NCBI RefSeq assembly: GCF_003018255.1
Contig: NZ_CP027440.1
Source of the DNA: Escherichia coli
GTDB lineage: Bacteria; Pseudomonadota; Gammaproteobacteria; Enterobacterales; Enterobacteriaceae
Length of the DNA stretch: 64,000 nt
Direction: 5' to 3' (one strand)
Positions 50,903 through 61,765 of the stretch are shown here, in pieces. Each line of letters opens with the position of its first letter. Position 1 is the first letter of the stretch. A program made the position numbers and the translations under genes. A model generated the notes under the pieces. That model ran no database searches. It was given only the letters and a program-made list of their open reading frames with translations, and was not told where the DNA came from.

Positions 50903-51604
50903 CTACAGTTTCAGAATTTCTTTCACAAACGGAATGGTCAGCTTACGTTGCGCGGTAATCGACGCACGATCCAACTGATCCAACGTCATAAATAACGTGC
51001 GCATCTCTCTGTCGAGCCGCTTCAGCAAGAAACGCCCCACATCTTCCGGCAGTTCAAAACCACGCAAACGCGCGCGTAACTGTAGCGCCTGCAACTTATC
51101 TTCATCAGAAAGTGGCTGCAATTTGTAGATCTGCCCCCAGTCGAGACGCGACGCGAGATCCGGTAATCCAAGATTCAACTGCCGCGGTGGACGATCGCCG
51201 GTGATTAACAACCGTGTTTTGCCCGATTCCAGAATTCGATTGTAGAGATCGAAAATCGCCATCTCCCACAACTCATCGCCTGCAATACACTCAATGTTGT
51301 CGATACAGACCAGCGACAAATGCTCCATACCGTCGAGCACTTCCGGAACAAACCAGGTGCGTTTATCCAGCGGGACATAGCCCACCGCATCGCCACGCTG
51401 CGACAATTCCGCGCAAGCCGCGTGCAGCAGATGGCTGCGCCCCGCGCCTTCGCGTGCCCAGAGATAGATGTAACCGCTATGTTCCTGACGCAGCACGTTT
51501 TGCAGCGCGGCCAGTAAAGAGGAGTTATCCCCCGGCCAGAAACTTGCAAAGGTTTCGTCGTCAGGAAGATAAAGTGGCAAAGAGAGCTGTGCCGGTGTGT
51601 TCAG
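50903..51604 (-). CDS. hda: DnaA-inactivating protein Hda (RIDA)
   Basis: ORF 50903..51649; mature 233-aa protein ([18 protein letters not shown]...) recalled to initiate at a CTG, which falls at 51604; AAA+ box. Confidence 0.85.
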
Positions 51605-51698
51605 AGATACCTCAACCAGGATTTCACAAAATCGCGAGAAGTTTACCACAGAATCCCATGATGTTTGAACCGGGCAGCAACACTGCCCGGTCGGTACA

Positions 51699-52988
51699 TT
51701 ATTTGTCTGTTATATCCGCGTCTTCTGCGTCCAGCACCACTTCTTCAGGGCGCAGCATACTAATCAGTTTGAAGATCAAACTTAAGCCGATACCGACGAT
51801 GGTCGCCAGCGCCATACCTTTCAGCTCCGCCGCGCCAATGTTTACCTTCGCGCCACTGACGCCGATGATCAAAATAACGGAAGTCAGGATCAGGTTCTGT
51901 GCTTTGTTGTAATCCACTTTCGATTCGATCAACACACGAATACCGGAAGCACCGATGACACCGTAAAGCAGCAGCGAAACGCCGCCCATCACCGGCAATG
52001 GAATCATCTGGATAGCTGCAGCCAGTTTACCGACGCAGGAAAGCAGGATAGCGAAAATCGCCGCACCGCCGATAACCCAGGTACTGTAAACACGGGTGAT
52101 CGCCATCACGCCAATGTTTTCTCCGTAAGTGGTGTTTGGCGTGGAGCCAAAGAAGCCGGAGATCACGGTCGACAAGCCGTTAGCAAACATCGAACGGTGC
52201 AGACCTGGATCGCGCAGCAGATCTTTTTTGACGATATTAGCCGTTACGACCAGGTGCCCTACGTGTTCGGCAATAACCACTAACGCCGCTGGTAGAATAG
52301 TCAGAATGGCAAACCACTCGAAGCGCGGCGTATAGAGGGTCGGCAGCGCAAACCAGTGAGCATTAATAATCGGCGTGGTATCGACAATTCCCATTGCGAA
52401 AGAGAGCGCGTACCCCACCAGCACGCCAATTAAAATCGGGATAATTGCCAGGAAACCACGAAACAGCACGGAACCTAAAACCGTGACCGCCAGGGTGGTA
52501 ATAGAGATGATGATGGTTTTGGAGTCTGGCGTTTGCCCTTCAGCCGGGAGTAAACCCGCCATACCGGCAGCTACGCCCGCCAGCTCCAGACCGATGACGG
52601 CAACGATTGCGCCCATTGCCGCAGGTGGAAACAGCACGTCCAGCCAGCCGGTCCCCGCTTTCTTCACGATAAAAGAAACCAGGCAGAACAGCACGCCGCA
52701 CATAATAAAGCCGCCCAGCGCAACTTCATACCCCAACGGCAACAGTAACAATACCGGTGAAATAAAGGCAAAGCTGGAACCAAGATAAGCCGGAATTTTC
52801 CCTTTACAGATGAAGAGATACAGCAGTGTTCCTATACCGTTAAATAACAGTACAGTCGCCGGGTTAATATGAAATAAGACGGGCACCAGGACGGTTGCAC
52901 CAAACATGGCGAACAAATGTTGCAAACTAAGCGGGATTGTCTGTAAAAGTGGCGGTCTTTCACTCACCCCGATAGCACGGCGCGTCAT
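51699..52988 (-). CDS. uraA: uracil:proton symporter (NCS2 family)
   Basis: ORF 51699..53030; start taken at internal Met ([20 protein letters not shown], 429 aa). Confidence 0.93.
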
Positions 52989-53027
52989 AGTATTATCCTC
53001 TGTATTATGTGTTATAGGCGCTTTACT

Positions 53028-53060
53028 CAAAAAAAAGCCGACTCTTAAAGTCGGCTTTAA
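53028..53060 (-). terminator. intrinsic terminator/attenuator between upp and uraA
   Basis: Minus strand reads aaagccgactttaagagtcggc followed by a T8 tract. Confidence 0.7.
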
Positions 53061-53073
53061 TTATTTTTATTCT

Positions 53074-53700
53074 TTATTTCGTACCAAAGATTTTGTCACC
53101 GGCATCGCCGAGGCCCGGAATAATGTATCCGTGCTCGTTCAGTCCCTGGTCAATCGATGCAGTATACAGTTCGACGTCCGGGTGCGCTTTTTCCAGCGCA
53201 GCGATACCTTCTGGCGCAGCGACCAGCACCAGAACTTTGATGCTGCTGCAGCCCGCTTTTTTCAGCAGGTCGATGGTCGCGATAACGGAACCACCGGTTG
53301 CCAGCATTGGGTCAACGATCAGCGCCATACGCTCATCGATGTTAGAAACCAGTTTCTGGAAGTACGGTACCGGCTCCAGCGTTTCTTCATTACGGTACAT
53401 ACCGACGACACTGATGCGCGCACTCGGAACGTTTTCCAGCACACCGTCCATCATCCCAAGACCCGCACGCAGAATTGGCACAACGGTAATTTTCTTACCT
53501 TTGATCTGGTCGATTTCTACCGGGCCGTTCCAGCCTTCGATAGTGACTTTTTCCGTTTCGAGGTCGGCGGTCGCTTCGTAAGTCAGCAGGCTACCCACTT
53601 CGGAAGCGAGTTCGCGAAAGCGCTTGGTGCTGATATCTTGCTCACGCATCAGTCCCAGCTTGTGTTTGACGAGTGGGTGTTTGACTTCCACGATCTTCAT
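53074..53700 (-). CDS. upp: uracil phosphoribosyltransferase
   Basis: ORF 53074..53727; start taken at internal Met ([20 protein letters not shown], 208 aa). Confidence 0.94.
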
Positions 53701-53727
53701 ACTCTTTCTCCTTTGAGGGGCAGCCAC

Positions 53728-53750
53728 AAAAAAAATCGACGGATTATACC
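53728..53750 (-). promoter_or_regulatory. upp promoter initially transcribed region with T8 tract (UTP-sensitive reiterative transcription site) and adjacent -10 (tataat)
   Basis: Minus strand reads ggtataatccgtcgattttttttgtggctgcccctcaaaggagaaagagtATG. Confidence 0.75.
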
Positions 53751-53945
53751 TCCTTTCTTCAAGGCGGCAATATTATTTTCGTTGACTTTAGTCAAAATGA
53801 TAACGGTTTGAGATAAAGTTATTTTATATTCAAATGGTTATGGAAGAAGATTATTCCATCCGAAAACGATCCTTTGCCCTAGTACAAGTATTCTTTCGCC
53901 GCGCGCCTGGGGAAAAGACGTGCAAAAAGGTTGTGTAAAGCAGTC

Positions 53946-53961
53946 TCGCAAACGTTTGCTT
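53946..53961. promoter_or_regulatory. PurR operator (pur box) of purMN
   Basis: tcgcaaacgtttgctt about 65 nt upstream of purM start. Confidence 0.75.
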
Positions 53962-54006
53962 TCCCTGTTAGAATTGCGCCGAATTTTATTTTTCTACCGC
54001 AAGTAA

Positions 54007-55061
<1,055 letters not shown>

Positions 55062-55870: not shown

Positions 55871-59483
<3,613 letters not shown>

Positions 59484-59488
59484 TGCTT

Positions 59489-59518
59489 TGCGGGCCGACG
59501 AGAAATGTCGGCCCGCAT
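59489..59518. terminator. bidirectional intrinsic terminator between ppx and pdeF
   Basis: Stem gcgggccgac-n9-gtcggcccgc in the convergent spacer. Confidence 0.65.
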
Positions 59519-59521
59519 TAT

Positions 59522-61765
59522 TCAGGCACTTTCGCGAATGGGTTCGATTTCATTCAGCGTATCAATTAACGGTTGCGGCTTACCAATAAGATAACCCTGC
59601 ATATAATCGATCCCCAAAGAGAGCACCGCCTCGCGGATCTCTTCGTTTTCAACGTACTCTGCCACTACCCGCATTTTCTTCATTCGCGCCAGGTGGCAAA
59701 TCGACGCCACTATCTGATAATCCAGACTATTTGACACAATATTGCGGATAAAACTGCCGTCAATTTTAAGCAGATCGGCATTCACATTTTTAAGCCGCGC
59801 ATAGCTGGCGTAGCCGGTGCCGAAATCATCAATCGCAATCTGGCAGCCTAATTCCTGAAGATGCTGCAAGGTGATTTGCGCCTGCTTAACATTGGTCAGA
59901 GCATTACTTTCGGTGACTTCAAAAATAAGTTGCCACGCTTCAATCTGATATTTAGCCAGCAGCTGACTGACTTCAACAGGAAAACGAGCCTGACATACCG
60001 AGGTTGGCGACAGATTAATCGCAAAACGGTGAGCGGGCATCTTCGCTCTGTTTTCAGCCATAAATTGCAGCGTATGCTCAATGACCCACATGTCGATACT
60101 CGACGATAAACCAAATTCGTGCGCGACCGGTAAGAAGCTATCGGGGCTGATCAGTTCATCATTCTCACCTTTCATGCGCAGAAGAATTTCATGGTAGACA
60201 TCACCACGCATACCGGTAATCGGCTGGGCCATCAGGAAAAAATGGTTGTGTTCCAGCGCCCGCTGTAGCCGATTCATCATCGCGACTTTATCTTTCAATT
60301 CGCGTTGCAAATACATTGCTCCGCGACGCTGCATATTTTCCGGGGCGTTGGTCACGATAGAAAGTTCGGCCACTGTATTTAGCTCTCCCAGCAGCAGGTA
60401 GATATGATTCACTGGCGAGCGCACATAGCAGTAACTGACGCCAATCTGCGGTTGCATCGGCATTCCATCCCAAAAGAAACGAAATTGCTTGAGATGGCTA
60501 TCCAGTGCGGTAATGCGCTCCTGGTGCGATTCTGTATTCAGCCGCAGCGCGAGATCGTTACCCGAAAGCTGATAAACATCTTCACCCGGTTCCAGCAATG
60601 GTGACAGCCAGTGAGAAAGTTTTTGCTTGTATTGAATCCGCAGCATGATGCCATAATTCTTAACCAGCATTTCCATGCCAGGGATGCGTAAATAACAAAG
60701 CGCAGACCAGGGGGCATCACGTAACGCGCGATTCAGGGCGCGAACATTTGGCAGATGAACCACCGGGTCCACATACGCAAGCCGCTGAATGCGTCTGACT
60801 ACCGCTCGCTGACGGGTTGCCAGTACAGCCATATAATTGACAATAAAAGAGAATACCAGATAACTGGAGGAGGTTATGGTCAGCTGCGTGGTATAGCCAG
60901 GATAAATGGGAATGTAATTTTGATAGCTGTGGATGCTGATCATCAACACGACCGCCCAGAGCAATGAAATCAGCTTATAACCATAGCGCATCGCTCCCCA
61001 CATCATCAGGGGCAGCAATAATGACAAGGTGTAATTGGTGCTAAAAATCGTGCTTTTTTCATTTAACGGCATGCATAACAGCAATAGTAAAGCACCTAAT
61101 GCCAGTAGCCAGATTGCGAACTCTTTTTTGGTAACTTTGGCATCAACCTGCTGTTTTAATTGCGAATAATAGCTACGTAAATAAAACGGATTTCGCACCA
61201 CCCGAATGATGAAGTAGCACAGCGGGACACCAATCAGATTACCCACCAGCAAGGCCTGATAATTGATTAAGGTCCCGAGGTTAAAGGGCATGACGCCGAC
61301 CAGATTTTCTCTGCTCGCCAGTAATCCAACAAACGCAGCAAACTGGAAAAGTATCAGAAACAGCGTTGCAGGAAACACAATCTGCCAGAATAGTCGCTGG
61401 GAAATTAAACGGCTATCACCATGTGAAACGTTGTTACGCCGGGGAGTAAAAACCCTGTAACCGCCCCAACAGAGAATGATAATGATAATAAAATTAGCCG
61501 TTAATGAGAGCGTTTCGTAAAAACCCAGCTCTGCATATTTGCGGACAAAAATCCCTAAGGCGATCCCTGGCAATGCCGCCCAGCTGAAAAACATCATCAT
61601 GCTGATCATCAGTGCCAGTGGCAGATAAAAGAGAAAAACTTCACCGGAAGAAATATGCGCGAAAGTATTAATGTGGGCGAAAATGGGCAAGATTAAAGAA
61701 GGCAGGAACAGCGGAAGCCCCCACCATTTATCACGTATTTTTATATAAGTTGCATTCAGTTTCAT
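59522..61765 (-). CDS. pdeF: c-di-GMP phosphodiesterase PdeF (MASE1 membrane sensor + degenerate GGDEF + EAL)
   Basis: 747-aa ORF; N-terminal polytopic domain; EAL motif region in C-terminal part. Confidence 0.9.
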   Translation of the reverse strand: MKLNATYIKIRDKWWGLPLFLPSLILPIFAHINTFAHISSGEVFLFYLPLALMISMMMFFSWAALPGIALGIFVRKYAELGFYETLSLTANFIIIIILCWGGYRVFTPRRNNVSHGDSRLISQRLFWQIVFPATLFLILFQFAAFVGLLASRENLVGVMPFNLGTLINYQALLVGNLIGVPLCYFIIRVVRNPFYLRSYYSQLKQQVDAKVTKKEFAIWLLALGALLLLLCMPLNEKSTIFSTNYTLSLLLPLMMWGAMRYGYKLISLLWAVVLMISIHSYQNYIPIYPGYTTQLTITSSSYLVFSFIVNYMAVLATRQRAVVRRIQRLAYVDPVVHLPNVRALNRALRDAPWSALCYLRIPGMEMLVKNYGIMLRIQYKQKLSHWLSPLLEPGEDVYQLSGNDLALRLNTESHQERITALDSHLKQFRFFWDGMPMQPQIGVSYCYVRSPVNHIYLLLGELNTVAELSIVTNAPENMQRRGAMYLQRELKDKVAMMNRLQRALEHNHFFLMAQPITGMRGDVYHEILLRMKGENDELISPDSFLPVAHEFGLSSSIDMWVIEHTLQFMAENRAKMPAHRFAINLSPTSVCQARFPVEVSQLLAKYQIEAWQLIFEVTESNALTNVKQAQITLQHLQELGCQIAIDDFGTGYASYARLKNVNADLLKIDGSFIRNIVSNSLDYQIVASICHLARMKKMRVVAEYVENEEIREAVLSLGIDYMQGYLIGKPQPLIDTLNEIEPIRESA

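Follow-up and report, generated by a model that had tools for sequence, protein, structure and literature searches.

The region described here contains, with a probability that we put at about 0.85, the two cis-acting control elements of the upp-uraA pyrimidine-salvage operon: a UTP-sensitive promoter in front of upp, and an intercistronic terminator with read-through to uraA. It lies in a stretch of 64,000 nucleotides of Escherichia coli DNA, referred to below as the window. The locus is the textbook E. coli uracil-salvage operon and thus represents known biology suited to a positive control, as an earlier note on this DNA had proposed when it called the control elements recognisable and intact. 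The comparative gain is modest: the UTP-sensing start region (G-A-T7–9) is universal in Enterobacterales, and current understanding is unchanged. The analysis also illustrates that a classic repressor-free regulatory element is recognisable from raw sequence.

Identity and organization of the locus

Reading of positions 51400..54400, together with the list of open reading frames, places hda, uraA and upp on the minus strand and purM, purN and ppk, divergently, on the plus strand, so that the earlier annotation of the window (hda-uraA-upp / purMN-ppk) is right. The gene arrangement is the same in MG1655, K-12 coordinates being obtained as window position x + 2,567,172. A 1.1-kb stretch spanning upp found a match in 5,425 of 5,426 complete E. 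coli genomes and is 100% identical to several E. coli chromosomes, which carry upp, uraA and purM as annotated features. The order of the two salvage genes extends beyond the species, uraA lying 3' of upp in all 79 Enterobacterales loci with sufficient downstream DNA. A 301-residue open reading frame antisense to upp (52906..53811, plus strand) was dismissed as a mechanical shadow ORF, unannotated in K-12. The features of the locus, in the direction of upp transcription, are as follows.

53765..53770, minus strand: upp −35 hexamer, TTGCCG (from a consensus scan; the same in PMC3946193 and in K-12).
53743..53748, minus strand: upp −10 hexamer, TATAAT (from a consensus scan; invariant in 81 of 81 Enterobacterales sequences).
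53738..53742, minus strand: G+C-rich segment CCGTC, which separates the −10 hexamer from the start sites (from reading of the sequence).
53737 and 53736, minus strand: alternative start sites, G at 53737 (‘G6’, reportedly productive) and A at 53736 (‘A7’, reportedly leading into reiterative transcription); GA opens the published region.
53728..53735, minus strand: T8 tract within the initially transcribed region, on which U residues are added reiteratively depending on UTP (PMC7039003 and sequence).
53701..53727, minus strand: remainder of the upp 5' leader, starting with GTGGC (53727..53723) and containing the Shine-Dalgarno sequence AGGAG (53712..53708); identical to K-12.
53074..53700, minus strand: upp coding sequence, uracil phosphoribosyltransferase, 208 amino acids, ATG at 53700..53698 and stop codon TAA at 53076..53074 (RefSeq annotation of matching genomes; the position of b2498 in K-12).
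53034..53058, minus strand: intercistronic RNA hairpin, AAAGCCGACUU-UAA-GAGUCGGCUUU, with 11 pairs, five of them G-C, a UAA loop and the conserved core GCCGAC/GUCGGC.
53029..53036, minus strand: T8 (U8) run of the intrinsic terminator, in which the three leading T form the end of the hairpin 3' arm and pair with the upstream AAA.
52989..53028, minus strand: spacer of 40 nt between terminator and uraA, with the Shine-Dalgarno sequence GAGG (53000..52997).
51699..52988, minus strand: uraA coding sequence, uracil:H+ symporter, 429 amino acids, ATG at 52988.

The upp promoter and its initially transcribed region

The promoter scan identified TTGCCG-16-TATAAT, with 10 of 12 consensus matches, as one of only two promoter-like matches in 2.7 kb, and promoter and leader together read TTGCCG-16-TATAAT-CCGTC-G-A-T8-G. 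The leader described in the earlier note, with TATAAT, CCGTCGA and GTGGC on the minus strand, is present between 53748..53743 and 53727..53723. The G and the A lie six and seven bases past the −10 hexamer, and positions 53737..53727 of the window read GATTTTTTTTG. A T8 tract is in itself unremarkable, with eight in the window against 5.8 expected; the composite TATAAT-N6-ATTTTTT occurs once, against 0.08 expected. The region thus combines the features of an upp-type UTP-sensitive reiterative-transcription promoter: sigma-70 hexamers at sigma-70 spacing, GATTTTTTTTG, a long T tract and a pyrimidine-salvage gene downstream. Folding of the upp leader revealed no significant structure (z = −0.11), and a leader attenuator at upp was rejected on this ground.

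The comparison proposed by the earlier note, that of this sequence with the characterised upp initially transcribed region, yielded no mismatch. The initially transcribed region is printed as 5'-GATTTTTTTTG in PMC7039003 and the promoter is listed as TTGCCG-16-TATAAT in PMC3946193; the window is identical to both. It is also identical to the knockout primers designed for K-12 BW25113 (PMC11200800), which cover the 50 nt 5' of the upp ATG as well as the hairpin region. In the alignment with MG1655, promoter and leader, from the −35 hexamer as far as the upp start codon, and the whole 85-nt upp-uraA spacer are free of differences; the closest is one T/G polymorphism, located 4 nt 5' of the −35 hexamer. 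‘Intact’ is therefore an apt description, as both the promoter-leader and the spacer match K-12 base for base.

In PMC12709180 the mechanism at this promoter is summarized as a start-site switch that UTP stimulates and that leads into non-productive reiterative initiation, and at such promoters slippage, once begun, does not give way again to normal transcription (PMC7039003). Regulation of upp is a UTP-sensitive choice between two starts that is coupled to non-productive reiterative U addition, and the T tract alone is not the sensor. The earlier note was right to assign the tract a role in UTP-sensitive reiterative transcription, but omitted the start-site switch, which is the actual sensor. 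In the 1997 work of Tu and Turnbough, high UTP is said to favour the A7 start and hence slippage, and low UTP the G6 start and hence escape. Cheng et al. in 2001 reportedly saw the regulation weaken progressively as the T tract was shortened below 8. At high UTP, polymerase would start mainly at the A, slip on the T tract and release AUUUU(n), and little upp mRNA would be made; at low UTP it would start at the G, one base upstream, and most transcripts would escape slippage and be elongated. This promoter step is experimentally established for the identical K-12 sequence and is carried over to the window by sequence identity; on the strength of that identity to the characterised promoter, we accept that the UTP-dependent shift in start site and the release of AUUU(n) transcripts would occur here as well.

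The intercistronic hairpin

The strong hairpin followed by a T8 tract that the earlier note placed between upp and uraA is present, the stem occupying 53058..53034 and the T8 tract 53036..53029. It begins 15 nt past the upp stop codon, the stretch between the two being A-rich, and its T run ends 40 nt before the uraA ATG. The predicted RNA fold has a free energy of −15.1 kcal/mol, compared with −6.4 ± 2.2 for shuffled sequences (z = −4.1), only one of 200 shuffles folding as well. By sequence the element has the make-up of a Rho-independent terminator, in which a stable G+C-rich stem-loop is followed directly by a U tract, and the sequence scan scored it as terminator-like on its 11 pairs and T8. 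No Rfam family was matched at the gathering threshold, the best scores being those of STnc240 (28.1 bits against 55) and Trp_leader (26.8 against 41). Family membership was rejected, as these sub-threshold alignments involve nothing beyond the terminator hairpin and U tract. A search of the literature with the hairpin sequence returned the knockout primers only.

Conservation across Enterobacterales

With the Upp protein as query, 80 Enterobacterales loci, ranging from Escherichia to Yersinia, Pantoea, Dickeya, Hafnia and Edwardsiella, were collected from a set of species-representative genomes, giving 81 sequences with the window. TATAAT-N6-A-T(7–9) stands 5' of upp in all 81. The A is invariant (81/81) and is preceded by G in 80 of them, while the T run comprises eight T in 47 sequences, seven in 25 and nine in nine. 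The segment after the −10 hexamer, counted with the G that follows it, is CCGTCG in the window and occurs elsewhere in the order as CCGGCG, CCCGCG or CTCGCG.

The hairpin is similarly constrained. Its core, GCCG[A/G]C-N6–7-GTCGG[C/T], followed by a T run, was found in 80 of the 81 sequences, and in the remaining one, from Erwinia persicina, it reads ACCGAC/GTCGGT with a compensated A-U pair, so that core pairing is kept in all 81. The T run is exactly T8 in 77. All seven core pairs are standard ones in each of the 58 distinct sequences. Four of them are constant, the rest vary solely towards G-U or a compensated A-U, and nine of the 12 core positions are invariant. The symmetric form is replaced by GCCGGC/GTCGGC in six sequences and by GCCGAC/GTCGGT in two, and the arms are spaced 7 nt apart in 53 sequences and 6 nt apart in 27. 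Read from the opposite strand, most of the substitutions would give C-A mismatches, which indicates that the constraint acts on the upp-sense RNA and not on a DNA palindrome. Outside the stem, the loop and flanks diverge and some genera carry insertions of 100–500 nt on either side. The 40-nt spacer before uraA is poorly conserved except in the ribosome-binding region and takes insertions in other genera; in some, the 100–500 nt between the hairpin and uraA at times include extra hairpin and T-run elements. Simple read-through may therefore not be universal across genera.

Two benchmarks put this conservation in context. In the same genomes, 78 four-fold-degenerate sites of upp had a mean pairwise identity of 48%, with 1.3% invariant, and the hairpin distal to uraA retained the E. 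coli arms in just 5 of 76 loci, a CCGGG...CCCGG core being found in only 46 of the 76 with many versions of the arms. Set against near-saturated synonymous sites and the turnover of the uraA-distal hairpin, the conservation of the promoter element and of the intercistronic hairpin indicates that both are under strong purifying selection. The intercistronic stem is unusually frozen, and the terminator is among those non-coding elements of the locus whose sequence is most constrained.

Variation within E. coli and E. albertii

The 81-nt promoter-leader with T8 occurs exactly in 4,736 of 5,424 E. coli genomes. A version that differs only in having T7 is found in 439 genomes (8%), including the type strain ATCC 11775, and one with T9 in 19, mostly O157:H7, where homopolymer assembly error is possible. 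A 91-nt spacer sequence is exact in 5,249 of 5,426 E. coli records, and in about eight records the upp-uraA spacer is interrupted or partly covered. In strain B19695 (L082:2550-3300) an IS200/IS605-family tnpA gene, oriented as upp and uraA are, lies between the two directly after the terminator T run.

E. albertii NBRC 107761 (L002:2440-2500) reads TATAATCCGTC-T-ATTTTTTTTG, in which T replaces the G of the productive start (53737 in the window). This is the sole non-G among the 81 Enterobacterales sequences and is absent from the 5,424 E. coli genomes. The variant may alter upp regulation in that species.

Probable transcript termination and the expression of uraA

The hairpin and its U8 tract would act as a Rho-independent terminator at which most transcripts end, and would thereby yield a monocistronic upp mRNA. 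Those transcripts that continue past it would supply uraA, which begins 40 nt further on and lacks a convincing promoter of its own. With both genes under the UTP-sensitive promoter, the terminator would fix a high ratio of Upp to UraA. The locus is designated the upp-uraA operon in three papers (PMC7039003, PMC3946193 and PMC2634741), from which partial read-through into uraA, as suggested in the earlier note, can reasonably be inferred; that a leaky terminator sets the Upp:UraA ratio we infer from this designation together with the anatomy and conservation of the element. The two genes also change together in arrays of an HU mutant (PMC2634741), and AZT induces both (PMC11228462). Literature searches on uraA and upp returned no 3'-end, read-through or uraA start-site values, and the supplements of Adams 2021 and of the SMRT-Cappable-seq study of 2018 make no mention of upp or uraA.

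How much transcription passes the hairpin bears on the principal alternative, according to which the hairpin and T8 tract stop essentially all transcripts, leaving upp monocistronic, and uraA is transcribed mainly from a weak promoter of its own in or near the 40-nt spacer. The element displays every feature of an efficient terminator: given its perfect U8, G+C-rich stem and upstream A tract it looks strong, read-through may be small, possibly very low, and uraA might then need another source of transcripts. By eye, a weak TTGAGT-15-CATAAT can be made out just 5' of the uraA ribosome-binding site, its 15-nt spacing being outside the range of the scan, and an AATAAC-like block recurs 10–15 nt 5' of the Shine-Dalgarno sequence in several genera. 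The long insertions that part the hairpin from uraA in some genera would also be in keeping with a separate promoter. However, the scan, which considered spacers of 16–18 nt only, found no match between the T run and uraA, and the spacer is poorly conserved. The consistent designation of the locus as an operon and the co-variation of upp and uraA point the same way, as does the 1995 work of Andersen et al., in which uraA is reportedly the second gene of a bicistronic operon. We therefore consider an independent uraA promoter unlikely as the main source of uraA transcripts.

The extreme conservation of the stem raises the question of whether it does more than terminate. A conditional, sequence-specific attenuator, at which a protein, an sRNA or UTP modulates termination or processing and thereby sets uraA expression, would explain why the stem and the U8 of exact length have stayed frozen throughout Enterobacterales (nine of 12 core positions; T8 in 77 of 81) while loop and flanks diverge and the hairpin after uraA undergoes free turnover, its arms accumulating compensatory changes (E. 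coli arms in 5 of 76). Termination at a long U tract is, moreover, kinetically UTP-sensitive. Nevertheless, the Rfam comparison gave only sub-threshold terminator look-alikes, the variable sequence and length of the loop argue against a specific loop-binding factor, and no candidate factor was found; a short stem selected for a precise termination efficiency can, in addition, stay invariant without a trans-acting factor. Regulated attenuation is thus improbable, slightly more so than a separate uraA promoter. Far less credible than either is the proposal that the inverted repeat is a DNA operator, bound by a dimeric transcription factor that acts on uraA or on antisense transcription, and is not an RNA structure. 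GCCGAC-N7-GTCGGC is indeed a perfect, strongly conserved palindrome that the scan flags on the plus strand too. The six GCCGGC/GTCGGC and two GCCGAC/GTCGGT sequences, however, break the DNA symmetry while retaining a G-U pair in the sense RNA, the spacing of the half-sites varies (7 nt in 53 sequences, 6 nt in 27), and conservation of the neighbouring T8 is confined to the sense side. The operator was rejected on the variable half-site spacing and the G-U-only substitutions, and a terminator with partial read-through is the preferred reading of the intercistronic element.

Neighbouring elements in the window

A near-perfect palindrome resembling a PurR operator, CGCAAACGTTTGCT, lies at 53947..53960 on the plus strand, about 65 nt 5' of the annotated purM start (54025), and is identical in K-12. 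The PurR operator consensus is ACGCAAACGTTTTC, and the site is positioned as expected for the PurR-regulated purMN operon. At 53850..53873, six substitutions relative to MG1655 fall in a cluster of about 25 nt between upp and purM, the rest of this intergenic region being nearly identical.

The window contains a second GCCGAC-N7-GTCGGC at 59494..59512, inside a longer hairpin, TGCGGGCCGAC-GAGAAAT-GTCGGCCCGCA (59487..59519). This hairpin is located between a convergent ppx-like open reading frame, which ends at 59483, and a minus-strand open reading frame at 59522..61765, and is probably a shared terminator that lacks a long T run. Being part of the longer hairpin on the ppx side, the second motif was discounted as a relative of the upp hairpin; the two are unrelated and the likeness looks coincidental. 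Past the uraA stop codon, at 51660..51695, the uraA-distal hairpin reads CCGGGCAG-TGTTG-CTGCCCGG and is followed by TTC, not by a T run. It is kept in Enterobacteriaceae with compensatory changes and is absent or different in Yersinia, Pantoea, Dickeya and Serratia.

Comparison with known systems

The closest known system is the K-12 upp promoter itself (Tu & Turnbough 1997, Cheng et al. 2001), with which the window agrees at every base from the −35 hexamer through the upp ATG, GATTTTTTTTG included. The codBA and pyrBI promoters, the other UTP-dependent reiterative-transcription promoters of E. coli, resemble upp in that a purine start precedes a T run, slippage occurs at high UTP and the slipped transcripts are released. 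The length of the T run and the arrangement of the starts differ, however, the published regions being AATTTG for pyrBI, ATTTTTTG for codBA and GATTTTTTTTG for upp (PMC7039003), and pyrBI, unlike upp, operates without start-site switching (PMC12709180).

The intercistronic element resembles canonical Rho-independent terminators, including those that act partially within operons, in its G+C-rich stem-loop, the U8 that follows immediately, the upstream A tract and its position just past a stop codon. It differs from them in that it sits inside a designated operon, so that some read-through is required, and its stem is far more conserved than the hairpin distal to uraA.
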